Shown: in pieces, positions 34,121 through 56,630 of the stretch
Position numbering within the stretch: the first letter of the stretch is position 1
How the letters are laid out: each line of letters begins with the position of its first letter
Source: Kiritimatiellia bacterium
Lineage (GTDB): Bacteria; Verrucomicrobiota; Kiritimatiellia; RFP12; UBA1067
NCBI GenBank assembly: GCA_050949565.1
Contig: JBMNFY010000017.1
Coordinates: forward strand, 1,248,001-1,312,000
Direction of reading: 5' to 3'
Length of the DNA stretch: 64,000 nucleotides
Notes under the pieces: generated by a model
Told to the model about the DNA's origin: nothing
The model's database searches: none
The model's input: only the letters and a program-made list of their open reading frames with translations
Translations under genes and position numbers: made by a program

Positions 34121-35146
34121 ATGTCTGAGAATCCGGGACCCGCACAGGGCGACGTTGCCGCAATCGCGTCAATGCGTGAGCGGTGTGCATGTATGAAAGA
34201 ACAACTGGCGCGCGTGATCGTGGGCCAGGACAAGGTAATCGAAGAGGTCTTGATCGCGGTCTTCAGCCGTGGCCACGCGCTGCTGGTCGGCGTACCGGGG
34301 GTCGCCAAGACCTTGCTGGTCAGCACAATCAGCCGCGCGCTGGATCTGAGTTTCAAGCGCATCCAGTTCACGCCTGACCTGATGCCGAGCGACATCACCG
34401 GTACGGATGTTTTGGAGGAGGACCACACGACCGGACGTCGCACGTTCCGTTTCGTCAAGGGTCCGATCTTCGCCAACATGGTGCTGGCTGACGAGATCAA
34501 CCGTACACCGCCCAAAACCCAGGCGGCGCTACTGGAAGCGATGCAGGAGCACCGGGTTACAGTCGGCGGCGTGAACTACGCGCTGCCCGAGCCGTTTTTC
34601 GTGCTGGCTACGCAGAACCCGATTGAGCAGGAGGGGACCTATCCGCTGCCCGAAGCACAGCTCGACCGCTTCCTCTTCAACATCATTGTCGATTATCCGG
34701 CCAAGGAGGAGGAGAGCACGATCATCCGCCAAGTGACCGGACCGCAGAGCGCGACAGTGGATAAGGTCTTGGACGCCGCGCAGGTCTTGGAGATGCAGGA
34801 ACTGGTGCGGCGTGTGCCGGTGGCGGAACACGTCATCGATTTCGCGCGCGATCTGGCGCGCGCCACCCGTCCCGCCCAGCCCGAGGCACCGGATTTCGTG
34901 CGCGAGATGGTCGCCTGGGGCGCGGGTCCGCGTGCGGGCATCAGCCTGATCACGGCGGCCAAGACGCGCGCGGCGATCCACGGACGCACCCACGCCACCA
35001 CGGTGGATGTCGCGGCGGTGGCCTATCCGGTGTTGCGTCACCGCGTGCTCACCACCTTCAATGCCGAAGCGGCCGGCATCAAGAGCGAGACGATCATCGC
35101 CCGGTTGCTGGAGCGCCTACGCCCCTCTGAAGATCTGGACGTGTAA
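34121..35146 (+). CDS. MoxR-family AAA+ ATPase
   Basis: GVPGVAKT, RIQFTPDLMPSDITG, DEINRTPPKTQAALLEAM, ATQNPIEQEGTYPLPEAQLDRF. Confidence 0.96.
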   Translation: MSENPGPAQGDVAAIASMRERCACMKEQLARVIVGQDKVIEEVLIAVFSRGHALLVGVPGVAKTLLVSTISRALDLSFKRIQFTPDLMPSDITGTDVLEEDHTTGRRTFRFVKGPIFANMVLADEINRTPPKTQAALLEAMQEHRVTVGGVNYALPEPFFVLATQNPIEQEGTYPLPEAQLDRFLFNIIVDYPAKEEESTIIRQVTGPQSATVDKVLDAAQVLEMQELVRRVPVAEHVIDFARDLARATRPAQPEAPDFVREMVAWGAGPRAGISLITAAKTRAAIHGRTHATTVDVAAVAYPVLRHRVLTTFNAEAAGIKSETIIARLLERLRPSEDLDV

Positions 35147-35209
35147 GCCACCGCGCCCGTGCGCAACGGACCGCGCGCGGCGCACCCCGTCTGCCGACGC
35201 CTCCTTACA

Positions 35210-36127
35210 ATGAGCACACCTTCCTACATGCGATTTTTGCCACCCGAGACGCTGGCCAAGCTCGGCCGCTGCGAACTGTCGGCGCGCGGTGTGGTCGAGG
35301 GGTTCATCTCCGGCAGGCACAAGAGCCCCTTCAAAGGCTTCTCGGTCGAGTTTGCCGAACACCGGCAATACACGCCCGGTGACGATCTGCGCAATCTGGA
35401 TTGGCGCGTGCTCGCCCGCAAGGACCGTTACTTCATCAAGCAGTACATCGACGAGACCAACATGCGCGTCACGCTACTATTGGACGCCTCGGGTTCGATG
35501 GCTTACGCTGGCGATGAGGCCGCGCCGCGCGATGGCCGGCCGCTCTCGAAACTCGCCTACGCGCAGTACATTGCGGCGATGCTCGGCTACCTGCTGGTCA
35601 ACCAGCAGGACGCCGCCGGGCTCGTCACCTTCGACACCGCGCTGCGCACCTACCTGCCGGCCCGTGCGCGGGCCAGCCAAGTGCGCAGCATCCTTGAAAC
35701 GCTGGATCAGACCGAACCGGGCGGCGAGACCGCCTTGGCAAAGATTTTTCACGACATCGCGGAACGCATTCCGCGTCGCGGCATGGTGGTGATCCTCAGC
35801 GACCTGTACGACGATCCCGCCGCGCTCATTCAGGCGCTGCACCACTTCCGTTACCGCCGCCACGAGGTGTTGCTCTTTCACATCGTCGCCGAAGAGGAGC
35901 TGACCTTTCCCTTTGAGTCGTACACCAAATTCCAAGACTTGGAGTGCGCCGACAACCGTCTGCCGATCGATCCGCGCACCATCCGCGCGACCTACCTGAC
36001 ACGCATGCGCGCGTTCCTAGATGAGATCGAAGCGGCATGCGGCCGCCTCAAGATTGATTACGTGCGCATGAACACGCGCGTACCGTACGATCAAGCGTTA
36101 GCGGAATACCTGTCATTGAGGAACTAG
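35210..36127 (+). CDS. DUF58 (vWA-like) protein
   Basis: GRHKSPFKGFSVEFAEHRQYTPGDDLRNLDWR, LDASGSM. Confidence 0.93.
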   Translation: MSTPSYMRFLPPETLAKLGRCELSARGVVEGFISGRHKSPFKGFSVEFAEHRQYTPGDDLRNLDWRVLARKDRYFIKQYIDETNMRVTLLLDASGSMAYAGDEAAPRDGRPLSKLAYAQYIAAMLGYLLVNQQDAAGLVTFDTALRTYLPARARASQVRSILETLDQTEPGGETALAKIFHDIAERIPRRGMVVILSDLYDDPAALIQALHHFRYRRHEVLLFHIVAEEELTFPFESYTKFQDLECADNRLPIDPRTIRATYLTRMRAFLDEIEAACGRLKIDYVRMNTRVPYDQALAEYLSLRN

Positions 36128-36143
36128 AACCTTACACCGCATC

Positions 36144-39038: not shown

Positions 39039-39040
39039 CG

Positions 39041-41776
39041 ATGAATGATGTGCGCATAGATCTGTTGCCGCCAGAAATCGCCACGTGGTTGGTGGCGCTG
39101 ATGATGGTGATCGCGATTGCGATCAGCTTCGGCGTACGGACGCTGACCGAACGTTTCCGCGCGCGGTTGCCGCGTCTGGCGGTGATTCTGCCGCGCGCGT
39201 TCGCGGCGGTGGCGGCGGCGTGGTTCCTGTTGCAGCTTATCGGCCGCGTGGCGACGTACGCCTGTCCGTGGCCGCTGTGGGTCGCCGCCCTGATGCTGGG
39301 GCTCGGCGTCGAGTGCGTGCTGGCCTGCTTCCGCCGCGAACGCCAGGCACTGTCGCCACGGCTGGGCAAGCTGATCCCGCTGCTGCGCACCACGGCAGTG
39401 GCGGTAACGGCGTTGATCCTGATGCAGCCAGTGCTGGTGCGCTCGACCGACAAACGAATCACGCGCCGCGTCGCCGTGCTGGTAGACGGGTCGGCCTCGA
39501 TGCGGTTCACGGACCGGCAGTGGACACCGCTTGAGCGGTTGCAATGGGCGGCCCATGTTGGCGCACTCGGAGCGGAACAACAGGCCGCGCTGACCAACGC
39601 AGCGACGGATGCGGGAGCGCTTTGGGACTCCCTGCCCGAGACGGCGCGTGCGGAGGTAAACGTATTTTGCGAAACCACGCGCGTCGCGCTGGCGTGCGCG
39701 ATGTTGACGCAGCCGGTCGCAGCCGGAGTGCCGTTCCTGGAGACGCTGGGCAACCGTTACGATCTGAGCCTCTTTACTGTCGGGCGTGGACTCTCCTGGG
39801 CGACCGAAGCCGACCTGCACGCCGGTCTGGCCCCGACTGGCACGCTGTCATTTGCGGAGCGTCACTTCCAAGGCGCGACCGACCTCACAGCCGCGCTGGA
39901 AGGCGTCCTCAAGGAGATTCCTTCTGAACACTTGGCGGGCGTGTTGCTAATAAGCGACGGCCTGCACAACGCCGACACCTCGGTGTTGCCGGTGACACGG
40001 CGCTTCGGCGCGCAGGGCGCACCCATTTGCGGCGTCATGGTCGGCGGCACGCGGTTGCCGTTTGATGTGGCACTGGCCGATGTGGCCGCGCCGGAATCGG
40101 TGTTCCTCGGAGATCGCGTGCGGATGGTCGCGTCGGTGCGGGCGACCGGTGCGTCGGGCCGCACGATCAAGGTCGCGCTGCTGTGCGAAACCAACGTGGT
40201 CGAAGAGCAGGAGTGGAAGATTACGTCGGACGATTGGCAACGCGAGATCCGGTTGGCGCATGAGCCGACGACCAACGGCGTAGTGTGCTATACAGTACGA
40301 GCCGAAACGCTCGAAGGAGAATTGTTTGACGACAACAACGTCTGGCGCGCCGACGTGGCGGTCAGCGATGACCGCATCAATGTGCTGCTGGTGGATCACG
40401 CGCCGCGCTGGGAGTTCCGTTATTTGCGCAATCTCTTTTTCGGGCGCGACAAATCGGTGCATCTCCAGTCTTGGCTGGTTCAGCCCGATCAAGTGTCCGG
40501 CGGGGCGACGGTCGAGTTGCCGCCGGCTTCGGCGGGGCGCAAGTTCGGCGACGCCGAGTCGGGGGGCTGGCCGAAGGGGCGCGAGGAGTGGCGCGCGTTT
40601 GACGTGATCATTCTGGGCGACCTGAACCCGCAGACGCTGACGCCGCAGGTGCAGGAGGAGATCCGCGCTTGTGTGGCCGACCGTGGCGCGTTGCTGGTGC
40701 TGATCGGTGGACCGCGGGCCATGCCGCACGCCTTCGCGCCGGATTCGCCGCTCGCTGCGCTCGCACCGTTCACAGTGCGCGAGCGGGCCGATTACTGGCA
40801 GGGGCCCGAAGCGACGTTCCGATTGCAGCTCACGCCGACCGGACAGAGACACCCGGTGATGGTGCAGTCCGGCAGTCTCTCCGAAAATGAAGAGGTGTGG
40901 GCCGCACTGCCGCCGTTTGACTGGCGGCTGCCCGTGACGGCGAAGCAGGGCGCCGAAGTTCTGGCCGTGGCACTGCCCGAGGACGGCGAGCGCGAACAGG
41001 TCCTAACCGATGTACGTCAAGCGGCCGAACATTTGGAAGCCGTCATGCAGCATCGCGCGCGCCACGCCGTGATCGTGTCGCAACGGGTGGGACGCGGCAA
41101 AGTGTTGGGGCTGGCGTTTGACCGCACTTGGCGTCTGCGATATCGTACGGGCGACACGCGCCATCATCGCTTTTGGGGGCAGGTCATGCGTTGGGGATTG
41201 GGTGAACGTCTGCGTGCCGGAAGCGAGCGTTTCCGCGCCGGAACCGACCGTCTGGTGTACGGCCCCGATGATCCGGTAATCGTGATGGCGCGCGTGCTGA
41301 ATGAAGATTTTTCGGGAGTCGCCGACGCGCGACTCGAAGCGGTGTTGCGCAATGCCGATGGGAACGAAATCACACGCACGGCTCTGACGCCGCGCGCTGA
41401 CTCACACGGTTTTTACGAGGCCACGCTGCCGCCGCAAACGCAGCCCGGCGCGATCGACCTTGAGGTGGTGCGACTGGATACGGTCGCGCCCGAGCGAATC
41501 GAAACCGCTATTCTGGTGACGGCCTCGCGGCGTCCCATCGAAATGGGCACGGTGCGTCCATCGCGCGATACGTTAGAGGCGCTGGCGAAAGGCACCGGTG
41601 GCCGTGTGGTGACGCCCGACCGGCTGACGGAATTGACCGAGGCCTTCGGCGAAGGTCGGGGCACGGTACAGGAGCGACGTGAGATCGCACTCTGGAATCA
41701 TCCGCTGGTGCTGCTCCTGCTGGCACTGCTCCTGACGACCGAATGGCTGCTGCGCAAACGCGGGGGGTTGGCCTAA
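39041..41776 (+). CDS. vWA plus glutamine-amidotransferase-like membrane protein of the MoxR operon
   Basis: VDGSASM, LISDGLHN, PRWEFRYLRN, FDVIILGD, HHRFWGQVMRW, EWLLRKRGGLA. Confidence 0.82.
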   Translation: MNDVRIDLLPPEIATWLVALMMVIAIAISFGVRTLTERFRARLPRLAVILPRAFAAVAAAWFLLQLIGRVATYACPWPLWVAALMLGLGVECVLACFRRERQALSPRLGKLIPLLRTTAVAVTALILMQPVLVRSTDKRITRRVAVLVDGSASMRFTDRQWTPLERLQWAAHVGALGAEQQAALTNAATDAGALWDSLPETARAEVNVFCETTRVALACAMLTQPVAAGVPFLETLGNRYDLSLFTVGRGLSWATEADLHAGLAPTGTLSFAERHFQGATDLTAALEGVLKEIPSEHLAGVLLISDGLHNADTSVLPVTRRFGAQGAPICGVMVGGTRLPFDVALADVAAPESVFLGDRVRMVASVRATGASGRTIKVALLCETNVVEEQEWKITSDDWQREIRLAHEPTTNGVVCYTVRAETLEGELFDDNNVWRADVAVSDDRINVLLVDHAPRWEFRYLRNLFFGRDKSVHLQSWLVQPDQVSGGATVELPPASAGRKFGDAESGGWPKGREEWRAFDVIILGDLNPQTLTPQVQEEIRACVADRGALLVLIGGPRAMPHAFAPDSPLAALAPFTVRERADYWQGPEATFRLQLTPTGQRHPVMVQSGSLSENEEVWAALPPFDWRLPVTAKQGAEVLAVALPEDGEREQVLTDVRQAAEHLEAVMQHRARHAVIVSQRVGRGKVLGLAFDRTWRLRYRTGDTRHHRFWGQVMRWGLGERLRAGSERFRAGTDRLVYGPDDPVIVMARVLNEDFSGVADARLEAVLRNADGNEITRTALTPRADSHGFYEATLPPQTQPGAIDLEVVRLDTVAPERIETAILVTASRRPIEMGTVRPSRDTLEALAKGTGGRVVTPDRLTELTEAFGEGRGTVQERREIALWNHPLVLLLLALLLTTEWLLRKRGGLA

Positions 41777-41915: not shown

Positions 41916-42330
41916 TCACTCTTTTACCCTGTAAGCGGCGTGAACAACCGAGCGCGCATCTGGAGTGAGTTGAAACGGGTCGTTTGTCGACACAACATAC
42001 CAGTTGTCGGGATCCACCTGCGGCGGCGCGTCAAAGAACACAAGCGAGCCCATCTCCACGGTGATGTTGGCCTGAGCGAACCTTTCCTTGGCCAGCGTGA
42101 CCTGCACGAGCGCGGACAGCGTGTCGATGCAGGCGACACCGTTGGTGCGCATGATCGCCACATCGACGCCCACGGACTTGACGTTCACGCCGACCGGAGC
42201 GCTGAATACATTGGTCTGCCCTCACCCGTCGACGTACGACCCGCACACGCTGCTCGATAGTTGCGACAGGAAGAGGCGGTTGGTCGAGTCCGGCGCGACA
42301 CCGTACGCGGTCGAGTCGAAAGCCGCGAAT
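41916..42330 (-). pseudogene. Internal fragment of a larger exported protein
   Basis: Coding-like frame FDSTAYGVAPDSTNRLFLSQ..DG*GQTNVFSAPVGVNVKSV..ERFAQANI with an internal stop and no proper start. Confidence 0.5.
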
Positions 42331-42343
42331 GTGTGACTTCTTA

Positions 42344-43315
42344 TCATGTGAAGTTCGCGCCGACGATTTCGCCCGTGGCGGCGTCGACATAGATAAGGAT
42401 GTCGGGCGGAATCGACCGCAAACCGCCTTCATACACTTTTGTGCCGATTGTTTCATACGTCACCACCCAGCAAAGTCGCGTTTCTTCCGGCGGCTTGTCA
42501 CGCATCCATACTGCCCGCTTGGGGTCAAGTAACCAGTTGGGGGCCGCAATAAGAAGTTCGGCTTTCTTGATGCCCCTCACTTTAAAATCAGGGAGGCGGC
42601 ACATCCGATAGAACGGAGTCTTCATCACTAGGGGCACCGCTTTTTCTCCTTTTGCCACGGCATCCTCACGGGATATCTTCACGTCTGTCGTGCAGGGGGG
42701 CGGCAAAACATCATAGCAGTAGAAACCGAGGAATCCGTAACGCTCATGGAAACTGACACTGACAGATTGTGATAGAAATGTCAGAAATGAATCAAATCTG
42801 TATCCCTGAAATGTGCGATCCCATCCGACATACCATTCATATGGGGCATAATAACCGAACACGACCTCTCTCAAACGGATGGGGTACGGTATCTTGACGC
42901 CGATGATATCCAGATAATTCTGGGCGCGTTCGACAGCCTCGTTTGTGGTCAGCGATTGGATACACTGCACGTTGTTTGTCTTTAGGAATCTCATCAGAGA
43001 ATCGTTCCAAATCGTTGTCAGTCGATTGTTCGGTTGCTCCAGAATGAAACACAATTGGCCGCGGATGTCGGCCCGAGTGCCCATTTCATCCGTTTTTATC
43101 ACATGGTACTCTTCGTCAAGGCGGAACGGCTGACGATAAATATCTGCGAACGGGACGTCGGTGGGTGCCAGTTTGGGGGCAAGGGTAGCATACCACTGCT
43201 TGGCGACCGCGATCGCACGATCCACCTCCGGCCCTTCGCGGATAATAGTGCCCTCATCCGCAAGAACGAAAAGAGCCATTAGACATCCAAGGACAAATAC
43301 AGTCTTTAAGTGCAT
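42344..43315 (-). CDS. Exported protein with C-terminal PepSY-like motif (candidate immunity/inhibitor 2)
   Basis: Signal peptide; DVKISREDA..; ends IYVDAATGEIVGANFT; paralog of 43432-44382; AT-richer. Confidence 0.7.
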   Translation of the reverse strand: MHLKTVFVLGCLMALFVLADEGTIIREGPEVDRAIAVAKQWYATLAPKLAPTDVPFADIYRQPFRLDEEYHVIKTDEMGTRADIRGQLCFILEQPNNRLTTIWNDSLMRFLKTNNVQCIQSLTTNEAVERAQNYLDIIGVKIPYPIRLREVVFGYYAPYEWYVGWDRTFQGYRFDSFLTFLSQSVSVSFHERYGFLGFYCYDVLPPPCTTDVKISREDAVAKGEKAVPLVMKTPFYRMCRLPDFKVRGIKKAELLIAAPNWLLDPKRAVWMRDKPPEETRLCWVVTYETIGTKVYEGGLRSIPPDILIYVDAATGEIVGANFT

Positions 43316-43368
43316 CAGTTACCTTTCTTCAGATCAACGACGTTGTTCGTGCTACCGTAAAGCTTCAT
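43315..43368 (-). pseudogene. Orphan remnant of the C-terminal tip of a paralog of the 1639-aa protein
   Basis: MKLYGSTNNVVDLKKGN* vs MKIYGATDNVIDKTTN; TGATG overlap with the downstream start. Confidence 0.7.
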
Positions 43369-43431
43369 TCCATGCGTCGGGGATTACACCATGCGCAACG
43401 ACACCCGTGTCCTCTAACGCATGTCTCCTTA

Positions 43432-44382
43432 TCATGTGAAGTTCGCCCCGACGATCTCGCCTGTGGCGGCGTCGATGTAGACCCGGAAAAACGGCGGAAC
43501 CAGCAGTTCGCCGGGTTCTGTCTTCCCGGTGTATTCGCTTGCGAGCGAGACCACCCAGCACAGGCGCGTTTCTTCTGGCACCCCCCGTCTCAACCAGATG
43601 GCCCGCTTCGGGTCGAGCAGCCAGTTCGGCGCGGCGATGAGCAATTCCGCCTTAAGCACGCCGGACACCTTGAACCCCGGCAGACGGCATTGCAGATAAT
43701 ACGGCGACCGCTGGATGAGCGGGACGGCCAGGACAGCCTTGTCTGCGGCGGCCTCCGCAGAAATCTTCACATCCATCCGTTTGGGGGCAGGATAGTCGTA
43801 GCGCCCGTAAAAGCCGATGAAGCCGTATTTTTCGCTGATTCGGACTTCGATTTGCTGCGCCTCGTAATTGATAAACGAATCATACCCTATGTTGTTGACT
43901 CGGGGTTCCCAAACGACTACCCACGCAGGCTCTTTATTTTTTCCATACAGAACGGATTTCACATACATGTTCGTCGGCAGGGAAACGCCGAGCACAGAGA
44001 TGTATTCCTTCGCCTGCTCGACCGCCCGTTGCGGAGTCCATGCCGGAACCCTTTGTACATTGTTTGTTCCGTTGTATGACCTCAGACGATGATTGTACAC
44101 CGCAATCAGTCTGGGAGGGTGCTCGTCCACCATATGGAAATCCAACTGCGCCGCCACTAAAAAAACAGACGGATAGTAGTCGAAATCTTTGCGTTCGCAC
44201 CCCCAGCGTTCAAGTGTCAGTTTATTTTTGTATATATTTGCAAAAGGGACGTTGGACGGGGTTAACGTCGCAACAACGCGATCATAGAAGTTTGAAACTC
44301 CTTTCAGCGTTGCCTCGGATATTCCGCCGGCAAACAAGCACTGTGTGAAAAAAAAGACAGCGAATAGAACGAGTGATCTCAT
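43432..44382 (-). CDS. Exported protein with C-terminal PepSY-like motif (candidate immunity/inhibitor 1)
   Basis: Signal peptide; ends VYIDAATGEIVGANFT; ATGA overlap with the upstream large gene. Confidence 0.7.
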   Translation of the reverse strand: MRSLVLFAVFFFTQCLFAGGISEATLKGVSNFYDRVVATLTPSNVPFANIYKNKLTLERWGCERKDFDYYPSVFLVAAQLDFHMVDEHPPRLIAVYNHRLRSYNGTNNVQRVPAWTPQRAVEQAKEYISVLGVSLPTNMYVKSVLYGKNKEPAWVVVWEPRVNNIGYDSFINYEAQQIEVRISEKYGFIGFYGRYDYPAPKRMDVKISAEAAADKAVLAVPLIQRSPYYLQCRLPGFKVSGVLKAELLIAAPNWLLDPKRAIWLRRGVPEETRLCWVVSLASEYTGKTEPGELLVPPFFRVYIDAATGEIVGANFT

Positions 44383-47300
44383 GGCGCGTTTTCCGTGTTC
44401 GTTGTTTTATCGATTACATTGTCTGTTGCCCCGTAAATCTTCATAAACCGTTCATCCCTGTCGGAGGTGGGAGCCAGCGCATTATGCTGATCTAAAAAAG
44501 CAGTATGCGCCTGCTGGACCGTTTTTCTGCCCTTGAGGTTGTTCAGGAACTCGGATGTCCACCTTTGCGCGGCGGTGGGATTCATGGTCCATGCCCAGCC
44601 CATGTAGGCGGAGTCCGCGCCGAAGGCGTCTGCGAAATCCATGCACTCGGCGACCAGATTGTCGTTGGCCCGCGCCGCGGCCTTGTGCGCCTCGATGCCG
44701 GCGTCGCCCCCGAGCAAGTTGAGCGGCATCTCCATCCTCACGTCCCACTCCTCCAATCGCTGGGTCATCGCCGAGCAGCAGCCGTCAACCATGACCAGCT
44801 TGTAGTCCAGATCCCTGTCCTCAAGGTCTTGGGTCCTGATCCGTTCTTCCGTCGCGAGTTCCAGCCCGTCAAAGGTGACGGCCCCGGTGCTCTTGCTGAC
44901 GAGCAGCTTGGCGTGGGACATAGAGTACCAGACTCCCTTGTTCTTTACACGCGACATCACCCAGTCCTTGGTTGCCTTTTTGTGCAGGTCGACCGTGTAG
45001 CGCAGGTCTTTGATCGGCTGCGCGATAAGGGCCGCCTCGTTCAAGCCCGCGCCCCAGCTTGTCCCGACGTCCAGCGACCGCCAGACCAGCGCGTCTTTTT
45101 CCGGCGGCACCTCTTTCTTCACGGGCGTGCAGCCGGTGAGGAACGCGACCGCCGAGACGCTGTGCGCCATCGGGTTCTTCCACCTCAAGTGTTCCGCGTC
45201 GATGCGCAAGGGCGTGTAGCCGGGCGGCGGGTCGGCGTCGAGTTCGCCGTCCGGGATCAGGATGAAGGCTTGGTCGGAAAGCAGGCCGCCGCCGGAAGCG
45301 GAGAAGGTGACCGTCCGGTCGCCGAAGGAGAGCGGGGACGGGCCTGCGCCGTAAGTCCCGGTCACGCTGTCCACGGAGGTGGTGAGCGAGACGGATGCCA
45401 GCAGGTCCTGCGGGAGCCCCGTGATCCTGATGCGCCACGGCGCGAAATCGGGCACGGCGAGCGCGGACGCGGGGAGGTCGGTCGGGACCGGCGGGTTGTA
45501 GTTCCGGTAGACGCCGGACTGCGGCGCGGTCTCCCAGACCGTGAAGACGGCGTTGGAAAGCCCGAACCCGTCCGTGACGGCGAGGCGGGGCGTTCCCGCC
45601 GCCGCAGACAGCCGGACGGAGAAGCTGCCGTTCGTGAAGGCGCCCGAGCCGGGGGCGGTCTCCGTCAGCCCGGTGTCGTCGGAGAGCGTCTCCGTGGTGA
45701 TGCGGAGGTCCGCGATGCGGGGGACGGCGGACGGCGCTCCCGCGCTGAAGACCAGCCCGAACAAGGTGTTTTCGAAGGCTGAACTTTCCGCCGACGTTTC
45801 AACGCAGGGGTAAACCGCGTTGGTGACGCCGAGCGCGGGGAAGGTGACAGACGCGCTGACCCACTCCTGGACGTTGGTGTCGGCAAGCAGCGCCCCTGAA
45901 AGCGTGACGCAAGAGGCCCCGTTCGTAAAAAAGAGGCTGTCCGGGGCGGTCTCGGTCAATACGCAAGATGCGCCGAGATACGTCACGGCGGCAGAACGGA
46001 GACCGGCGGCGTTTGTCGGGGACAACGTGAACGCGAGGTCGCTGCCGGGGCAATCATAGACCGGCTCGCCTTTGCCGATGCCGTCGGATGGTGTGAAGAC
46101 GGGCAGATGGGCCATCGGCTGACCTTCGTCCTCGCCCTCGGCATGCACAAACTCAATGTCCCACGCCACGATCTTCTGGGTGGCTTCGGCGCGGAAGCGG
46201 TGGCGGCGGTCGTATTTCGGGCCGTAGAACTCGAAGGTGAGTTCGGCGTCGCCGGGCCCGAGGAACTCGGCGTAGACTTCAAGGTCGGTGAAGCGGTCGG
46301 GGAAGTCATGTATGGACACGTCATCCGGGGAGCCGGTGCGTGAGAGGAGCGGCGTGCCGTTCGTAGACGCGGGCGCGGGCCAGACCCGGAAGCGGGCGTT
46401 GCCGGAGGCATGGAGCCGGAGCGTCCCGGGCACGCCGGCGCCGACGTATGCCGAGAGCCGCACCTTCTTCAGCGCGTTGCTGGCGGCGCCGACGTGCCAC
46501 GTCCGGTTGGAGGAGAGGACGAGGACGGCGTGGTCCGGCGCGCCGGGCAGGGTGGAGGCGACCGCGCCGTCGCCGTCGGCGTCGGGCATCAGCGCGACGC
46601 CGAGGACGGTGACGCGGTTGGTGGCGTAGTGGTGGCGCTGCCAGGTCTCATGGCCGTCGTGCACGGTCTCGGTCCAGTGCCAGACGAGCGCGTCGGCCCA
46701 CGGGCCGGGGCTGGGGGCCAACCCTTCGGCGTAGACGCGCTGGCTCTGCATGATCGAGCCGGAGAAGGCCGTTTGTTTGCCGGTGTCCCGCCAGAGCCTG
46801 ACGCGGGAGGACGCGGAGGCGAGTTCCGCCCCGGGCTCTTCCGCCCAGCCGTGGCCCGGGCACTGGCAGCAGGCGGGGCCGAGCGGCACGAGGGGGGCGA
46901 GGTCGGGGTCCGGCTCGTCCGCCGTCCACGGGGCCTGTTCCCGGTCTTCCTGCAGGTCACCGTCGTCGTCGTTGGCATTGAGGATGAGCAGGATGTTTTC
47001 GTTGCGCCCCCAGGGCGGGTGGTCGGGCTCGTCCGGTTCGCCGGGATCGCCGCCGGGGCCGGGGTCGCCAGGTTCGTCTGGATCGTCGGAGCCGGGATCG
47101 TGGAGGCGGGCGCATGCGTCCCGTGTGCAGTCGTGCTCGTGGCACCAGTCCGCGGGACACTCCGGGTACGGGCAGCCGTGCCTGGGGCAGACCGGCGGCG
47201 GGGAGCACTCCGAGACGTCGCAGTTGTGGAGGAAGCACCACACCGGCGAGCTGTTGCCGTGGTCGCAGGCGCACAGCGCGTCCTCGCAGTCGTGCGCGAG

Positions 47301-49298
47301 GCACCACGCCGGGGCGGGCTCCTCCGGCAGGATGCAGGTGTGGATGTCGACCCAGTCGGTTTTCGCGGCGGACGCGCCCTCGGCCGTGAAGCTGAGTCCC
47401 AGCGCGCCGCTTTTCGGCATCGTCAGGTTGACGTGGGGGCGGTCCCCCGGAAGCGGGGTCCCGTTCAGCCGCCATGCGTACGCGCCGCGCATCGGCGGGG
47501 TGATTTTTGCCGCCAGGCTCTTCCTGCCCGCCGAGTGGAAGCAGACGGTCCCGCCGCGCTCCCGCGCCGCCGTCGGCGCCCGGACGGCGACGAGGGGTTG
47601 GGCGATCAGTCCGGCGGCGACCGGCGCGCCCGGCGGGAGCGTCATGCCGTCCCCGAACGCCGCCGCCCCGGCGCCGCCGGGCTGGAACGCCGCACAGCCG
47701 CCGCCGGCCGTCAGCGAGAGCCGCACCCAGCCCCCTTGGGCCGACCACAGCGAGACCGGCCAGGCGGCCCCCTCGTCCAGCCAGAAGGTCCATGTCCCGG
47801 TCCTGTCGATCAGGAGCCGCCGGTTTCCGACCGCCAGCACGGCGGGGGCTGCCGGGACGGCCTTGACCTCGACGGTGACGGGGAACATCGCGGCCGAGCC
47901 GTCGTGCCGCAGGGGCGTGCTGCCGTCGTTGAACGGGTCGGAGCACAGAAGCCCCTCCAGCCAGTCGGGGAACCCGTCGCCGTCGCTGTCCAGTTCCGCG
48001 TCGGCGCCGGCCGCCAGCCCGTTGAGGTCGGCGAGGATCCGGCGCCGCACGGCATCGGGATCGGTCTCGGGGGTCAGCGGGGCGGGGTCGATGCCGTCCC
48101 GCAGGCCGTCGCCGTCGGTGTCGGGGTCGAGGGGGTCCGTGCCGAGGGCGATTTCCGCGCCGTCGTCCGCCCCGTCGCCGTCGCTGTCGGCGCGGCGCGG
48201 GTCGGTGCCGTGGATGAGCAGTTCGTCATAGATGGAGAGGCCGTCGCCGTCGTGGTCGTCAATGGCCGGGTCGAGCAGGCCGAAGGCGCGCCAGCGCAGT
48301 TCGAGGCCGTCGGCGAGCGCGGAGGGATCGTCGAGGGCGAAGGCCTCGCCGCCGCCGTTGTGCCGGGCGCCGATGAAGAGGTTGGTGAAGGCGTGGCCGG
48401 GGGATCGGAGCGCGGAGCCGGCCGGTATTTTGTACCGGAAGCGGAAATCGCCGTTCCCGGAGAGTTCGGACTGGAAGGAGACCGGGCAGTTGGTGTCGCG
48501 CCCGGCGTAGAGGTTCTCCCAGGCCAGCAGCAGGCCGCCCGAGGGCGTGGGCGCGTGCCAGAAGCGCCCCTGCGGCGGCACGGTGCCGAGGCTGCCGTGC
48601 AGCGGCGCGAGCAGGCTGGCGTTCTCGGGCACGGAGGAGGGTTTCGGCGTGGACAACGGGTCCCGGAACGACACCAGCCCGGAACTCGACACGTAAAGGC
48701 CCTCGACCTGATTGGTGCCGAGGATGAAGGACCAGCCGTTTGTCCGCAGCCAGAAGATGTCCTCGGCGACGCCGTAGACGGTCCACGGCGCGTGGACGAC
48801 CGCGTTGGAGGGGGCCGCCAGCCACGCGGCGGGGTTGGTCGCGGCGGAGACGAGGGCGAAGCCGGCGGCGTACTGGCCGGGGGTGAGGAAGCCGGGGGTG
48901 GCACCCAGCGATGCGTAGTCGAAGGGCAGGGCCGGGGCGCCGCCGGACTGCGGGGAGGCGGCACCGCCGGAGGCGGGCGCCGCCGGGGGCGGGGTGTTTG
49001 TGGAGGGGGGCGTGCCCCCCGCCGGGGGCGGCGCGCTCCCCGCAGCCGACCCTTGGTATTGGGCGGCGGGCACGGGCTCCGGGGCGCCGGAGGGAGCGCC
49101 GGGGCCGGGTTTGGGCTTGGAGCCGCCGTAGATGCAGAGCGCGACGACGAGCGCCAGGACGAGCATCTGGTCGAAGCGGGACTGAGCCCGGAAGTTGCGT
49201 ATCGGGTCGCGGAAGACGCCGTCGGTCTCGCAGGCGCGGGCGATGAACCACAGCACGAAAGCGATGCCGAGGAACCAGAAAAGCATGGCAGGTGTCAT
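44379..49298 (-). CDS. 1639-aa membrane-anchored/exported protein with DxDGDG Ca-binding repeats, Cys/His repeats and a caspase-like (clan CD) C-terminal domain; candidate polymorphic effector
   Basis: Start MTPAMLFWF with RBS GAAGGGG; two hydrophobic N-terminal segments; Pro-rich linker; DHDGDG/DSDGDG/DTDGDG; VWYSMSHA and LVMVDGCCS. Confidence 0.7.
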   Translation of the reverse strand: MTPAMLFWFLGIAFVLWFIARACETDGVFRDPIRNFRAQSRFDQMLVLALVVALCIYGGSKPKPGPGAPSGAPEPVPAAQYQGSAAGSAPPPAGGTPPSTNTPPPAAPASGGAASPQSGGAPALPFDYASLGATPGFLTPGQYAAGFALVSAATNPAAWLAAPSNAVVHAPWTVYGVAEDIFWLRTNGWSFILGTNQVEGLYVSSSGLVSFRDPLSTPKPSSVPENASLLAPLHGSLGTVPPQGRFWHAPTPSGGLLLAWENLYAGRDTNCPVSFQSELSGNGDFRFRYKIPAGSALRSPGHAFTNLFIGARHNGGGEAFALDDPSALADGLELRWRAFGLLDPAIDDHDGDGLSIYDELLIHGTDPRRADSDGDGADDGAEIALGTDPLDPDTDGDGLRDGIDPAPLTPETDPDAVRRRILADLNGLAAGADAELDSDGDGFPDWLEGLLCSDPFNDGSTPLRHDGSAAMFPVTVEVKAVPAAPAVLAVGNRRLLIDRTGTWTFWLDEGAAWPVSLWSAQGGWVRLSLTAGGGCAAFQPGGAGAAAFGDGMTLPPGAPVAAGLIAQPLVAVRAPTAARERGGTVCFHSAGRKSLAAKITPPMRGAYAWRLNGTPLPGDRPHVNLTMPKSGALGLSFTAEGASAAKTDWVDIHTCILPEEPAPAWCLAHDCEDALCACDHGNSSPVWCFLHNCDVSECSPPPVCPRHGCPYPECPADWCHEHDCTRDACARLHDPGSDDPDEPGDPGPGGDPGEPDEPDHPPWGRNENILLILNANDDDGDLQEDREQAPWTADEPDPDLAPLVPLGPACCQCPGHGWAEEPGAELASASSRVRLWRDTGKQTAFSGSIMQSQRVYAEGLAPSPGPWADALVWHWTETVHDGHETWQRHHYATNRVTVLGVALMPDADGDGAVASTLPGAPDHAVLVLSSNRTWHVGAASNALKKVRLSAYVGAGVPGTLRLHASGNARFRVWPAPASTNGTPLLSRTGSPDDVSIHDFPDRFTDLEVYAEFLGPGDAELTFEFYGPKYDRRHRFRAEATQKIVAWDIEFVHAEGEDEGQPMAHLPVFTPSDGIGKGEPVYDCPGSDLAFTLSPTNAAGLRSAAVTYLGASCVLTETAPDSLFFTNGASCVTLSGALLADTNVQEWVSASVTFPALGVTNAVYPCVETSAESSAFENTLFGLVFSAGAPSAVPRIADLRITTETLSDDTGLTETAPGSGAFTNGSFSVRLSAAAGTPRLAVTDGFGLSNAVFTVWETAPQSGVYRNYNPPVPTDLPASALAVPDFAPWRIRITGLPQDLLASVSLTTSVDSVTGTYGAGPSPLSFGDRTVTFSASGGGLLSDQAFILIPDGELDADPPPGYTPLRIDAEHLRWKNPMAHSVSAVAFLTGCTPVKKEVPPEKDALVWRSLDVGTSWGAGLNEAALIAQPIKDLRYTVDLHKKATKDWVMSRVKNKGVWYSMSHAKLLVSKSTGAVTFDGLELATEERIRTQDLEDRDLDYKLVMVDGCCSAMTQRLEEWDVRMEMPLNLLGGDAGIEAHKAAARANDNLVAECMDFADAFGADSAYMGWAWTMNPTAAQRWTSEFLNNLKGRKTVQQAHTAFLDQHNALAPTSDRDERFMKIYGATDNVIDKTTNTENAP

Positions 49299-49314
49299 GT
49301 CCGTGTCCCCTTCG

Positions 49315-49914
49315 TCATTTGATGGTGATGCGCGCGCCGTCCGGGGCGGACACGGTTTTGATGCGTTCCTGCGGCGCGTCCGCGCCGCGCGCGGTGACGC
49401 GCAGGGTGTCCCATGTTCCGGGGCGCAGCCATTCCGGGAGGGGCGGCTGGGGGAGGCCCGCGAAGGCGACCGCGCCGTCGCGGTCGGTGAAGGCCGGGGG
49501 CAGACAGACACCCGAAGCAGTGACGCGGATGAGGGCGGTGAGCCTCTGCGTGCCGTTGGACGAGGCGGCGGGGACGGCGTGGCGGGCGCGCAGGCCGCGC
49601 GGCGACAGGAACCACCCGCCGCGGTCCCAGCCGACGGCAAGGTCGGTCTCGCCCGCGTCGAGCGCGCCGTCCGCCGGGGCGGCGTCGCGGCCCAGGCAGA
49701 CCTGGACGTGGTTGGAGGGCGTGGCCTCGAAGACAAGCTCGAGGCGGAAGACGCGCGGGCCGCCGGGGCCGGCGGCGGGCAGGGCGTGCGTCGCCGACAC
49801 CTCGCGGTCGGCGGTCGCAGGCTCCGGCAGGCGCGGCACCTCCAGGGTGGCGGCACCCGCCGCCAGCGCGGCTGCGGTGATGACGGTGGCTATGGTTATT
49901 ACGTTGTGTTTCAT
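49315..49914 (-). CDS. Exported hypothetical protein (199 aa), first gene of the island operon
   Basis: RBS GAAGGGAA, signal peptide MKHNVITIATVITAAALAAGA, ends 16 nt before the large gene. Confidence 0.7.
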   Translation of the reverse strand: MKHNVITIATVITAAALAAGAATLEVPRLPEPATADREVSATHALPAAGPGGPRVFRLELVFEATPSNHVQVCLGRDAAPADGALDAGETDLAVGWDRGGWFLSPRGLRARHAVPAASSNGTQRLTALIRVTASGVCLPPAFTDRDGAVAFAGLPQPPLPEWLRPGTWDTLRVTARGADAPQERIKTVSAPDGARITIK

Positions 49915-50433
49915 CTCGTTCCCTTCACTCGGTCCTCCGGCAGGGAAAAGGCGCGGACCCCGCTCCGTGCCACCTACGAGGTACCGTCAAGGACCTTTGG
50001 AGAAGCCCGGCGACGAGGCCGCGCCCGATCGGGCGCGTCCCCGTGCATTCCGCTTCTCCTAGAATTTGACGGTTTTGGTAGGAAGCGTTCTGCGCGAAAG
50101 CGCAAAAATCAAATCAGTCTATGGGGGTTCGGTTCTCTTCTCGTTCTCCGGTTTTCTCTCTTGTCGTCCGCCAAGCGGCTCTCGTTCGCATGCGGCCTGC
50201 CGACTACCATCCAACAACAACGCCGCATTCCATCGTTGAGTGCATCTTATACTCACTGGCAGATAGAACGCAAGGCGAAAAATTCACAGCCTTTTCGCCA
50301 GAAACGCATGATCTTCGCATCCCCCCTGTCACCAACTGCGGATTACTTACGGTCAACGAGTTGACCTTGACGAAAAATGAAACGGATGGCATAACATAAA
50401 TTGTTCTAACAATTTTAGAGAAAGGATGTGCTT

Positions 50434-51090
50434 ATGTTACCTCGTACACAGGAACTTAGAAATTGGACCTCGGAGAAAAAATGCCGCAAGGTGGTGGATA
50501 ACCTGACCAAGAAACATTTCACTGCGGTGTATTGTGCCACTGCCAAGGAGGCCGCCGACTACATCATGAAAGAGGCTGCGTCAGCGCAGAGCATCGGCTT
50601 CGGCGGATCGCTCTCGGTGGCCGACCTCCAGATCACCGCGCGTTTGGCTGAGCAAGGCAAGGAGATCCTGAACCACGGTGCCCCGGATCTGACACCCGAG
50701 CAGCGGGTGGCGTTCATGAAGCGGCAGCAGACCTGCGACCTCTTTTTGAGCGGCACAAACGCTGTGACGCTGGATGGATGCCTGGTCAATATCGACGGTC
50801 ACGGCAACCGCGTCGCGGCCATGATCTACGGCCCCACGAAGGTGATCGTGGTGGCGGGTCGCAACAAGATCGTTGAAGGCGATATCGCGGACGCCATCCG
50901 TCGCATCAAGGACAAGGCCGCGCCGCCCAACGCCATGCGGCTGGAGCGGGAGACGCCGTGCGCGGCAACCGGTTTCTGCAACGACTGCGACGCGCCGCAC
51001 CGCATCTGTCATGTCACGACGATCATCGACAGCAAGCCGGGTGCCACCGACCTCCATGTGCTGGTCGTCAACGAAGACATGGGACTGTAA
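50434..51090 (+). CDS. LUD-domain (lactate utilisation-like) protein
   Basis: GFGGSLS, FLSGTNAVTLDGCLVNIDGHGNRVAAMIYGP, PCAATGFCNDC. Confidence 0.88.
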   Translation: MLPRTQELRNWTSEKKCRKVVDNLTKKHFTAVYCATAKEAADYIMKEAASAQSIGFGGSLSVADLQITARLAEQGKEILNHGAPDLTPEQRVAFMKRQQTCDLFLSGTNAVTLDGCLVNIDGHGNRVAAMIYGPTKVIVVAGRNKIVEGDIADAIRRIKDKAAPPNAMRLERETPCAATGFCNDCDAPHRICHVTTIIDSKPGATDLHVLVVNEDMGL

Positions 51091-51098
51091 GTAGCCGA

Positions 51099-54000
51099 CT
51101 ACCGGACAAGGATCACCGTTCCCCTGCCGGAAGGCACCACATACACCGCGTTGCCATCGGCCACAAGCCGCATTTGGCGACCGGTGTCGTCGGCGATCAC
51201 GGTCCATGCCCCCGCAGTGAACCCGCTCAGTGACGCGCCATCCACAGCTTCGGCCAGCAGGGCCGGCTCGTCCGGCAGCGCGGCCGCACCCGTGATCGTT
51301 ACAGTCCCGCCGCCCATGAAAGTGAGTCCGCCCGCCGTGCGCAACGGTACAACACTGCCCGCACCAACGGCCACATGCCAGGTCGCGCTATCGTTGACCG
51401 TCAGCGGGCCGGCCAGTGACAGCTCGGCCGTCGGGTTTTCGGAAGACACCTGCCTGATGCCATTCACCGTCAGTGTGCCGTCCGACACCGCGCCGACGCC
51501 GCCGAACGTACCCAACTCGTATTCGCCGCCGCCCAACAGTAGCTCGGTGCCCTCTCGTAACGTCAGGGTCATGAGCGCAGCCGAGGCTCCTCCGGTACCG
51601 GTGCCGCTGCCATCGCCCGATGCCAGCCCCCACTTGGTCGCCAGATAGGTTCCGACCTGCAGCACCTCAATGTCCGTCAACACGTCATCATAGATCAGCA
51701 ATTCGGCGAGCTTCTGCCCACCGCTACGATTCACCCCGTCAGCGTGTCCGTCCGGCAGCACGCGCATATCTTTGGCCAAACCGTCGATCTTCAGTCCCGC
51801 CGTCGTGCGCATAGCAATCACTTGGTAGCCGCCGTTGAGCGGCGTCGAGGTACCGGTGCCGACAGACACGCCGTTGGTGAAGGTCTCGCCAAGCCTCACT
51901 GCGTCATCACTCCATTGGGCATTCCAAATCATACAATCGCACGTGACATTAGCCTCATCCATCGCCGGCGTGCCCGGCGCCGGTCCGCGAATCAGATTGT
52001 GCGCACTGCTGCCCATCAACAGGCCACCGCCCTGTTGCGACCCCAGTACCCAGAAGATCGTGCGCGCATTCTCCACCGGCGTGATTTGCAACCATTGGCC
52101 ACTGCGCCAAGCACCGAAATCGAGTACCGCACGACCGTTAAGCGCCGCCGGTTCCAGTGTCGGCGGCAACGCCGTGCGATAGCCCGATGCCTTGTTGTTG
52201 GGCACGAACGGATTGAGGAACGCATACGGGTAATTGGTCACGGCCGGATCGGTATCGCGCGCATCACGCCAGCCGATAACCGCGTTCGGCGAGCCAGGCT
52301 GAAACACCAGCGACGGCCCGCGGCTGGCGTCCGCCCAGAAAGCGAGGTTGCGCTCGACCTTGGTACAGCCGGCCAGTGACACGCGCCCCTCGATAACGTC
52401 CAGCCATCCCGCGAAATCCTGAAACTGAAACAGACTCAGTGCCGCCGCGCCGGTCTTGGCCAGCAGGCCGGTCCCGCTCAGGCTGCCGACATTCAGCTCG
52501 CGAACACCGACCTGAAGCGTTCCGGCCAGCGGCGGCTCGTCCTCCGCCGGCACCGTGAGCGCTCCCAGCGTCGCAGGGATATCGCGCGTGAAAGGACGCT
52601 GCCACTTGCTCATCAAATACGCCTCGACCTGGGCCATCTCGGCCTCGCTCAACGCATTGGTGTAGACAATCACCTCGCCCAGCCGCTGGCCGCCGCTGCG
52701 TTCCGTGAGCCAGCGGTCGCGTGCGAACTGTCCAGCCAAAACATTGCCTGTCGTGCGCAGCGCCACCACCTGATAGCCGCCGGAAAGACCGGCCTGCGTG
52801 TTGTCCACAGGAACGCCGTCGATGCGGGTCGGACAGCCTTTCACCGATCCATGCGCATACTGCCAGAAGAGCGGCGTGGCGGCGCTGGCGACCGGACCGC
52901 GCGCAAAGTGATTGTCGCCGGTGGCATCCTCGTTCTGCGTGCCGCCGAGCAGCACCCCGCCGCCCTGCTGCGAGCCGATCACCCAGAATACCGTGCGCAC
53001 GTTCTCGAGCGTGCGCGACCACTGCAAGCCCTTGTCGACCGTCGGTGTGTTGGTGGGGCCTAAATCCACCACCGCCAACGCACCGATCTCGTTGGGCAAC
53101 AGCACCGGCGCATGTGTCCAGCGCTGCGTCGCCACGATATAGGCGTCCGTTCCGTCCCAGCGCACATCGCGCCAGTAGACACGGCCCGCAGCATCCGTAC
53201 CGAAGCTGTCGGCGACGTTGGCGTCAACCCAGAACGCGGCGCCCGGCACCGGATTGGTGGTGGCCGCATGCGCCGTGAGCTGCGCCGCCAGCCCGTCCGC
53301 CGTGAACGCGCCCTCGGCCAGCGCCAGCGTGCCGCTGAACAGCTCCGGCGCTTCGACCGACATCGTGCCGGCCCCGAGTTTGGCCAAGGTGCCGCTGCCG
53401 GTGATCCGGCCGAACGGCACCGTCACATTGGCGTGGGGAATCTCCACGCCGCCCGTGCCGTTCACCACGAGGTCAGCCGCGCGCACGCGCATACCGCCGC
53501 TCCCGCCCAGCCACTTACGCATAAGGTAGACCTCGACCGTCTGTCGCTCCTCCTCGGTCAGGACGCGGTCGTAGATCAACACTTCGGCCAACCGCTGGCC
53601 GCCGCTACGTTTTGTCCCGTCAGCGTGCCCGCCGGTCAATGTCGTGCGCATGTCCTTGGCCAACCCGTTGACCGTCACTTCGCCAGTGGTGAGCGCCGTG
53701 ACCAATTGGTAGCCGCCGCTCAAGCCGGTGGTGGTAGGATTGACAGCAAGCCTGTCGACCCAGACTTGGCTTTCCCTGAACTCGGGCGAGACCCATGTGT
53801 CCGAGCCGAAGATCGGATGCGAGGCCAGCAAGGTCCCGTCGATCTGCCCGCCGCCGCGCGCCGCGGACTTGTCGGGCGACCCGATCAACATGCCGCCGCT
53901 GTTCTGCGAGCCGATCACCCAGAAGAAGGTGCGCGCATTCGCAACCGGGCCGAACTCCAGCCACTGACCACTGTGATAAACACCGAAATCCAAAGCCGGC

Positions 54001-56534: not shown

Positions 56535-56630
56535 GTTAACCTCTCCCTTTTTCTCGTGTGCACACCCAACCACGCCGGACAACACTACCCAAAATTGACC
56601 GCCACCAAAAGACGCAAACGTAATTGCCCT

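Follow-up and report, generated by a model that had tools for sequence, protein, structure and literature searches.

To our knowledge, almost all described bacterial warfare systems come from Proteobacteria, Firmicutes, Bacteroidetes and Actinobacteria. The Rhs and CdiA toxins carry VENN or PxxxxDPxGL junction motifs, to which the RFRAEAxQKI motif described below may bear a functional likeness; known PepSY inhibitors, in turn, target zinc metalloproteases, mostly in cis as propeptides. In the part of its main text covered here, to which all our statements on this source are limited, Zhang 2012 (PMC3482391) already catalogues caspase-like domains as C-terminal toxins (Tox-Caspase), partnered with Imm36 and Imm57 and using the type II, type VI and type VII secretion systems (T2SS, T6SS, T7SS) or PVC as routes in Actinobacteria, Proteobacteria, Bacteroidetes and others, and a toxin of this kind is therefore already known. 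Here we describe an operon in a 64-kb window (the whole stretch of DNA that was analysed) of a 4.66-Mb, 92%-complete genome (G000), whose proteins have their closest named relatives in metagenome-assembled genomes (MAGs) labelled Kiritimatiellia/Kiritimatiellaeota. The locus is probably a toxin-immunity system of the polymorphic-toxin type, in which a 1639-aa protein ends in a clan CD cysteine protease domain and is followed by exported PepSY-fold proteins.

A preliminary description of this DNA, made from the sequence alone, had proposed a protease effector with PepSY-like inhibitors. Its operon order, ATGA and TGATG couplings, 1639-aa frame and orphan tip are all borne out by the gene coordinates: on the minus strand throughout, a 199-aa exported protein precedes the 1639-aa protein, P0002, a 17-aa orphan tail and P0003. 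The features are as follows.

49315-49914, minus strand: 199-aa exported accessory protein (P0004), first gene of the operon, with a signal-peptide-like N-terminus.
ATG 49298 to 44379, minus strand: large gene, 1639 aa, modular (putative anchor, shared N-terminal module, constant middle, swappable C-terminal cassette).
49122-49289, minus strand: Arg-rich loop between two hydrophobic segments (residues ~4-23 and 45-59), from a Kyte-Doolittle scan.
47895-49298, minus strand: N-terminal module, residues 1-468, common to an RHS protein and other paralogues by BLASTP.
About 47928-48320, minus strand: TSP3 repeats inside the N-terminal module (Pfam; CglD-like in NCBIfam).
46170-46199, minus strand: junction motif RFRAEATQKI, the last conserved residues when sequences are set side by side.
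45282-46169, minus strand: pre-module of ~296 aa, starting VAWDIEFVHAEG, with repeated TETAxxSxxFxN units; always accompanies the protease domain.
44397-45101, minus strand: clan CD (CHAT/caspase-like) cysteine protease domain, last ~240 aa, from the AlphaFold2 fold and conserved His/Cys.
43432-44382, minus strand: P0002, 316-aa exported tandem-PepSY protein, in ATGA overlap with the protease gene.
43315-43368, minus strand: 17-aa open reading frame (ORF) MKLYGSTNNVVDLKKGN, resembling the large protein's tail MKIYGATDNVID and TGATG-coupled to P0003.
42344-43315, minus strand: P0003, 323-aa exported tandem-PepSY paralogue, 43% identical to P0002.
41916-42347, minus strand: stop-interrupted remnant of a zincin cassette, its ATG overlapping the P0003 stop.

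The 199-aa gene and the large-gene ATG are separated by a 16-nt gap with AAGGGGA, and a 63-nt spacer lies between P0002 and the 17-aa ORF. A longer, GTG-extended frame of the large gene was rejected as spurious (it is Arg/Pro/Ala-rich and overlaps the 199-aa gene); the 1639-aa reading is right because the paralogues of the large gene begin at an equivalent MTP(A/N)MLFWF. The compositional shift noted in the preliminary description, from a GC-rich large gene to an AT-richer tip and downstream genes, is reproduced here: G+C content is 0.71-0.78 for the greater part of the large gene, drops to 0.59-0.62 in the final ~800 nt and is 0.48-0.56 across much of the P0002 and P0003 genes.

Two stretches near the C-terminus of the large protein, VWYSMSHA (44910-44933, His codon 44913-44915) and LVMVDGCCS (44772-44798, first Cys codon 44778-44780), had been suggested to form a clan CD dyad. 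An exhaustive HMMER search with the last 300 residues returned 63 cluster representatives, 44 of them at E <= 1e-10, which are either long proteins or short fragments covering just the last ~100 residues; the protease domain is C-terminal-most in all nine relatives examined at full length. Across an alignment of 26 sequences, numbered by the 300-residue piece, D166, C168 and A171 never vary, and conservation of H123 is 90% or more; H123 and C168 correspond to His1462 and Cys1507 of the full-length protein. The AlphaFold2 model of the domain (predicted local distance difference test, pLDDT, 86.0; predicted template modelling score, pTM, 0.79) places this His and Cys directly after strands 117-121 and 162-166. 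Searched against the PDB with Foldseek, the model has clan CD proteins as all 17 of its top matches at E <= 0.001 (SAVED-CHAT, separase, Csx29, Dronc and MALT1), the best being SAVED-CHAT at E 4e-7. VIA-align superposes it on SAVED-CHAT 8tl0 over 174 residues (Z 14.7; root-mean-square deviation 3.0), followed by separase (Z 13.3), DdvA and gingipain RgpB (both 13.2), metacaspase (~12), Csx29 (11.8), and caspases and legumain (~11). By its model, then, the domain has the clan CD fold and dyad, and the residues singled out earlier are the ones that structure and conservation pick out.

At the level of sequence, Pfam matches over the His-Cys region of the 26 relatives are sub-threshold and to clan CD families only (CHAT in 2/26, C25 in 2/26, C14 in 1/26), with a best CHAT score of 20.9 bits against a cut-off of 24; given sub-threshold curated matches only, the domain therefore constitutes a new sequence family within clan CD. 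PDB sequence searches with the profiles of the protease and PepSY families gave nothing meaningful. Among 301 genomes sampled across the phylum, the protease profile matched the host genome alone.

The protease forms part of an exchangeable cassette. A homologue search with the first 1000 residues gave 318 proteins, mostly via TSP3 repeats, of which the top 46 were compared by BLASTP. P0139, P0141, P0145 and P0155 are alike through ..RFRAEAxQKI and lose all relatedness immediately after it: P0139 matches at 83% identity over q1-1049 (q denoting window-protein residues) and then continues into ~500 unrelated aa, P0141 is 95% identical over q403-1053 and then carries a cassette with HELCH (a HExxH motif), and P0145 and P0155 go on into DUF900. 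The constant scaffold thus spans residues 1-1043, with 83-95% identity among close homologues. Others part earlier, P0143 and P0144 past q624, and P0140 is the same protein at 99% identity in another dataset. Since the sequences are unrelated right after ..QKI, the window cassette comprises the 596 aa from VAWDIEFVHAEG (nt 46169) onward; the swapped unit is not the ~260-aa tip first supposed, as it takes in both pre-module and protease. The toxin-immunity-orphan layout proposed from this one locus finds a counterpart in homologues with different C-termini past a sharp junction and in orphans and arrays both here and elsewhere, and a comparison of N-terminal homologues, suggested as a check, shows C-termini and neighbours that vary. 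The pre-module and protease also occur together behind unrelated N-termini (P0080, P0083, P0089, P0100, P0103), and Pfam detects no other enzymatic domain in the 596-aa cassette. The P0139-type cassette looked by eye like another His/Cys protease and was rejected as such, as hhalign against the protease alignment gave a probability of 0.6%.

Several further arrangements of cassette parts were observed. Intact ORFs of ~375-385 aa consist of their own signal, transmembrane (TM) or lipobox N-terminus and the pre-module only (L005:2831-3988; L038:1116-2255; L045:3594-4745; L059:880-2007); they stop where the protease domain would start, and stand directly after the protease gene or within PepSY arrays. 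Their constant length suggests a function, perhaps as a trans-acting prodomain, a decoy or an alternative immunity protein, over decay. At L005:1-672, a PepSY-family gene stands behind another kind of C-terminal domain, which contains ...NHPSNEWM... and ends KGLDAKKGGTP. L047, L053 and L072 have this domain too, downstream of their protease genes, which suggests a further cassette type sharing just the extreme tail.

On the partner side, we regard P0002 as a candidate cognate inhibitor or immunity protein and P0003 as a candidate orphan immunity gene. Both end in Y(I/V)DAATGEIVGANFT, so that the shared (I/V)DAATGEIV ends reported from the letters are found in the translations, and both have hydrophobic, signal-peptide-like N-termini; any protection would therefore lie outside the cytoplasm. 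At E <= 1e-3, 72 relatives of P0002 are found, none with a name other than 'hypothetical', and the conserved part of this family is its C-terminal half, ending IYIDAATGEIVGANFT. The PepSY-like character of the partners, initially a matter of the end motif, now extends to structure: the P0002 model (pLDDT 87.5) folds into three helix-plus-sheet units, its best Foldseek match is the triple PepSY protein YpeB (5boi, E 5.7e-7), and its five matches at E <= 0.001 comprise YpeB, an uncharacterised Eubacterium protein (5coz) and the propeptides of the M36 and M4 proteases fungalysin and vibriolysin (~1e-5). Weak Pfam PepSY matches occur in 18/20 family members (best E 6.4e-5). Weak matches to Imm35 (PF15567) fall on the C-terminal PepSY-like unit in 8/20 members (best E 2.5e-4), P0003 itself scoring 16 bits against a cut-off of 27.5; Imm35 is annotated as a 'possible protease inhibitor' (Zhang 2012, PMC3482391). 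A complex prediction of the protease domain with P0002, run without controls, scored 0.29 against a mark of 0.32, and no longer protein fused to the PepSY partner was seen among 5782 candidates, which is weak evidence.

The two genes are also often neighbours. Seen from the PepSY side, in 13 loci of species-representative genomes, the protease lies directly upstream on the same strand in seven. Seen from the protease side, there are 45 metagenome loci, and the 32 whose sequence continues for at least 1 kb past the protease are informative: in 17/32 the start of a PepSY gene is no more than 300 nt away, in four more such a gene lies ~1 kb further on, and seven have two or three PepSY genes in tandem. 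Non-PepSY loci have other products in this place: ~160-180-aa, TM-anchored proteins ending ...WENWWxQTGxHLPFDEEKGQLVLPE, ~110-130-aa multi-helix membrane proteins (MKRLTTYYFLLL...), or ~380-aa ORFs of signal/lipobox and pre-module alone. It is possible that the WENWW-type and multi-TM small proteins are alternative immunity types. The PepSY-replacing small-protein families were observed to follow divergent members of this protease family (L046, L049, L053, L054, L063, L065, L066, L067 and L070).

Within the host genome, the N-terminal 400 residues match 23 places at E <= 1e-5, and tblastn with ORF maps resolves at least seven paralogous large genes that share the N-terminal module; at E <= 0.01, this protease is carried in that genome by the window gene alone. 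The paralogue on contig C10 has the N-terminus of the RHS protein P0146, with an RHS-like orphan downstream. Contig C17 holds a tandemly duplicated 1282-aa gene, each copy of which stands after a near-identical 199-aa gene and before two paralogous ~295-aa exported proteins, and three more distant large-gene paralogues lie on C2 and C17. Downstream of the C17 pair is a 647-aa orphan that retains ~100 aa of the constant domain ahead of the junction and whose C-terminal 500 aa are 70% identical to the P0139 cassette; after it come four paralogous 283-290-aa exported proteins and the third PepSY paralogue of the genome, which make up an immunity-like array of five genes. The duplicated unit of C17 (1937018-1948542) measures ~7 kb, its copies being alike but for single changes, as judged from 40 N-terminal and 25 C-terminal residues per product.

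On contig C19 (13644-22031; L031), the window gene has a close paralogue that is broken across several frames, as either a pseudogene or an assembly error. This locus has a divergent His/Cys domain with VWIHNGHG, LVFMNTCDS and YVGWDCEV (hhalign E 6e-4, probability 29%). Beside it stand a pair of PepSY-like genes whose products terminate in YVDAVTGEMIGG (E 8e-6, probability 84%); a 157-aa fragment represents half of a protease (E 1.4e-4), and the locus also encodes an exported protein of 171 aa. Judged by these sequences, C19 suggests a second, independent protease/PepSY pairing, for which the statistics are weak and the motifs line up.

Orphan fragments accompany the operon as well. Searched for by regular expression in all six frames of the window, the tail motif turns up in the large-protein tail and the 17-aa ORF only, and the latter fits the protease-family consensus tail MKIYGxxxNVID. 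Four of the eight identical residues of orphan and large-protein tail use different codons; the orphan therefore stems from a diverged protease gene and not from a recent copy, and is presumably the remnant of a displaced protease once cognate to P0003. The remnant at 41916-42347 matches P0141 cassette residues 111-241 with 88% identity over 131 residues (tblastn, 41934-42326), includes one internal stop and lacks the HExxH part; with it, the array extends beyond the end of the region set out in the preliminary description. Similar orphan tails are found elsewhere (two in L005, and further ones in 3/45 metagenome loci, L037, L054 and L075). Those of L005 are 24-codon ORFs whose starts each overlap the stop of the preceding PepSY gene; the first overlaps the start of the next PepSY gene and the second that of a pre-module-only ORF.

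In the large protein, TSP3_bac is the sole Pfam match, NCBIfam adding a partial CglD-like match over the TSP3 repeats, and for the N-terminal 340 aa the ESM Atlas offers a weak NIDO lead (score 0.84, under the tool's reliable level). By the positive-inside rule, the two hydrophobic segments would form a membrane anchor of N-out/C-out topology or, alternatively, a signal peptide followed by a single TM helix; together with the Arg-rich loop, they place the bulk of the large protein, by prediction, outside the cytoplasm. The module is shared at 63% identity with P0146 and 59% with P0149 (both q1-467), at 68% with P0147 (q1-403), and at 34-37% with P0160, P0179 and P0180 (over q1-450 to 620). Of the four that share q1-450 to 620 with the window protein, P0146 and P0160 contain RHS repeats by Pfam, P0179 was named RHS repeat-associated at source, and P0180 has PF25023 in its precomputed Pfam list. 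The earlier statement that no RHS marker is visible thus stands for the window protein, in which Pfam and NCBIfam scans found no RHS repeats, FHA repeats, TpsB partner, PAAR or VgrG, and fails for the scaffold family, whose N-terminal ~450 residues head RHS-repeat proteins. The 199-aa protein has no Pfam or NCBIfam match and falls into unnamed clusters only in the ESM Atlas, the single one with a recorded phylum being Kiritimatiellota; four paralogous large genes of the host genome are preceded by near-identical 199-aa genes. Further along the scaffold, residues ~655-733 (47100-47336, minus strand) are Cys/His-rich, with three copies of a W-C-x-x-H-x-C-x(4-5)-C-like motif and CPRHGCPYPEC; this stretch has the look of a metal-binding repeat, has no Pfam match and is kept in P0078.

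As to expression and surroundings, a sigma-70 scan gave four promoter-like sites against 1.3 expected, the sole one on the gene strand (50440-50412) sitting ~500 nt upstream of the 199-aa gene, and terminator predictions were at chance level. Just downstream of the toxin locus and convergent with it is a Bat-type aerotolerance-like operon (34121-41776, plus strand; MoxR AAA ATPase, DUF58, BatA/VWA/PA14 and MG2-like genes). On the other side, a plus-strand LUD-domain gene (50428-51090) stands between the toxin operon and the gene for a 1901-aa protein (51099-56804, minus strand) with a sub-threshold match to PATR, the autotransporter passenger repeat.

We propose that the 1639-aa protein would cross the inner membrane on export and stay anchored in it through its N-terminal hydrophobic segments, with the 199-aa protein and the N-terminal domain as candidates for a role in export or attachment. 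The clan CD protease, through its His/Cys dyad, would be the effector and act outside the cytoplasm. Sec-exported P0002, with its three PepSY-like units, would bind and block the cognate protease in the periplasm, shielding producer cells and kin alike. Recombination at the RFRAEAxQKI junction may bring in new cassettes along with their partner genes and push older ones downstream to decay; P0003 with the 17-aa tail, and the broken zincin fragment, would be leftovers of such earlier cassettes. What the analysis shows are the folds, the conserved dyad, the exchange of cassettes at a fixed junction, the coupling and linkage of the genes and the orphans; proteolytic activity, toxicity, inhibition by PepSY proteins, the target and delivery into another cell are inferred.

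A number of observations weigh against a toxin-immunity system. In the protease itself, the window protein has His-Ala where the consensus of the 26-sequence alignment is His-Gly, and it scores below the curated Pfam thresholds for CHAT (PF12770), C14, C25 and C13; for the partners, Pfam PepSY (PF03413) scores of 15.8 bits (P0002) and 23.0 bits (P0003) stay under the cut-off of 24. Nor is pairing obligatory: 11/32 informative protease loci have no detectable PepSY gene after the protease, and 6/13 PepSY loci have no nearby protease, including Verrucomicrobia loci in unrelated contexts. Near-duplicate loci (L043/L044, L061/L062 and L039/L041) mean that these counts overstate independence, and metagenomes or MAGs are the source of every relative. 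A comparison of protease divergence with partner divergence, over 15 non-independent pairs from six loci, gives a Pearson r of 0.73 that is driven by one close pair and a Spearman coefficient of 0.33 (p 0.22). With regard to delivery, TssC and Hcp were not found in the 92%-complete host genome, Pfam and NCBIfam show no known trafficking domain in the large protein, and an inner-membrane anchor in a diderm leaves the reach to a neighbouring cell unexplained.

Some of these same observations would fit a housekeeping or niche-adaptation surface protease, with the PepSY proteins as chaperones or zymogen-keeping inhibitors and the variable C-termini as a diversification of surface enzymes. The N-terminal anchor would keep such a protein on its producer, and the absence of a delivery system from the searches above, like the PepSY relatives without a nearby protease, would be expected; these genomes also hold many giant TSP3/LamG surface proteins, and PepSY is known as a propeptide or regulator of a cell's own secreted proteases, as in the structural matches of P0002. 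What such a protease would leave unaccounted for is the sharp replacement of cassettes within near-identical scaffolds, the RHS and DUF900 cassettes on the same scaffold, the orphan tails, half-domains and stop-interrupted remnant, the tandem arrays of partner genes, the patchy occurrence of the protease (1/301 genomes) and the fall in G+C in the cassette end and partner genes. Because cassette swaps, orphans, arrays, patchiness and a G+C drop are hallmarks of conflict systems and not of housekeeping enzymes, we consider a surface protease unlikely.

It is a good deal less probable still that the clan CD domain is an autoprocessing peptidase, as in MARTX or large clostridial toxins, which frees the pre-module or another part and whose cut the PepSY proteins only time. 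Releasing peptidases of clan CD do occur in many polymorphic and host-directed toxins (Zhang 2012, PMC3482391), the pre-module always accompanies the protease, and pre-module-only ORFs exist. Yet releasing peptidases sit upstream of a separate toxin domain, and by the logic of the same source (Zhang 2012, PMC3482391) the C-terminal-most position is what marks the toxin; no other enzymatic domain is detectable in the cassette to be released, and a dedicated, diversifying exported partner is hard to square with a purely intramolecular cut. Finally, that the locus is a non-functional fossil of a mobile cassette system, as the surrounding remnants and pseudogenes and the C19 paralogue split over several frames could suggest, is hardly credible. 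The reading frames of the 1639-aa protein, of both PepSY proteins and of the 199-aa protein are unbroken and coupled in translation, the catalytic residues show conservation, and P0140 is a 99%-identical copy in another dataset.

Returning to the toxin-immunity system, we tentatively extend it to a platform of Kiritimatiellota/PVC (here Planctomycetes-Verrucomicrobia-Chlamydiae) bacteria, made up of a two-helix N-terminal anchor, a ~300-aa domain and TSP3 repeats, a dedicated 199-aa exported accessory protein, a fixed junction and at least five cassette types, without type V, VI or VII secretion, and with the triple-PepSY proteins as the first immunity/inhibitor family for clan CD toxins; such an extension is possible and less secure than the assignment of the locus itself. 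Its cassette types may comprise two His/Cys proteases, a zincin, DUF900 and an unknown type, RHS joining further upstream. What is new is the protease sequence family, its pairing with PepSY-fold proteins, and, in this phylum, the scaffold together with the junction motif and the accessory gene. In the literature searched, no paper joins PepSY with polymorphic toxin immunity, CHAT or cysteine protease inhibition, and none concerns polymorphic or Rhs toxins of Kiritimatiellota/Kiritimatiellaeota; in the parts of the two papers covered, PepSY refers to ligand-binding domains (PMC12419801) and to an archaeal family (PMC6393860).

A barely cultured phylum would thereby hold a complete cassette-swapping toxin family on a scaffold of its own and with no known injection machine, which makes delivery directly testable, and the sharp junction motif is a simple handle for mining more cassettes. 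That a caspase-like protease is paired with an exported PepSY protein also suggests a new natural class of inhibitors for clan CD, to which caspases, separase, gingipains and legumain belong. If true, PepSY proteins would inhibit cysteine proteases in trans as well as serving metalloproteases as propeptides in cis, and many orphan PepSY proteins would have a testable function.

Set beside the described systems, the locus combines familiar parts in an unfamiliar way. Like the Tox-Caspase systems, as far as the main text of Zhang 2012 covered here goes, it has a caspase-like H/C peptidase that is C-terminal-most in a large modular secreted protein, a small gene after it, and orphan cassettes; unlike them, its partner is an exported triple PepSY-like protein and its scaffold, from a Kiritimatiellota-like genome, has a new N-terminal module. 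Neither PepSY nor TSP3 is mentioned in that portion of the main text, and its remainder and supplement could list related architectures (PMC3482391). Imm35 resembles P0002 and P0003 in its context beside peptidase toxins, and is listed there with the papain-like Tox-PL1 and Ntox40, not with caspase-like toxins (Zhang 2012, PMC3482391).

With Rhs and CdiA the locus shares a constant N-terminus, a short junction motif and a variable C-terminus, followed by a candidate protective gene and by orphan modules moved out of place, some of which keep a piece of the constant region; in contrast to them, the window protein lacks RHS and FHA repeats, TpsB, PAAR and VgrG. An RHS-bearing paralogue does, however, use the same N-terminal ~450 residues. 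CHAT proteases and separase have the same succession of a hydrophobic strand then His, and a hydrophobic strand then x-Cys-x-Ser/Thr. SAVED-CHAT, Csx29 TPR-CHAT, DdvA and separase are cytoplasmic, signal-activated proteases of defence or the cell cycle, whereas the protease described here is predicted to be extracytoplasmic, is constitutively fused to a surface scaffold and has an exported partner. For that partner, the PepSY proteins of vibriolysin MCP-02 (3nqy, M4), fungalysin (4k90, M36) and YpeB (5boi) offer the fold and tandem arrangement seen in P0002, and known PepSY proteins resemble P0002 and P0003 in their C-terminal D-A-x-T-G-E-hydrophobic motif, extracytoplasmic location and association with proteases; the difference lies in the partner being a separate protein here, paired with a cysteine protease of unrelated fold.

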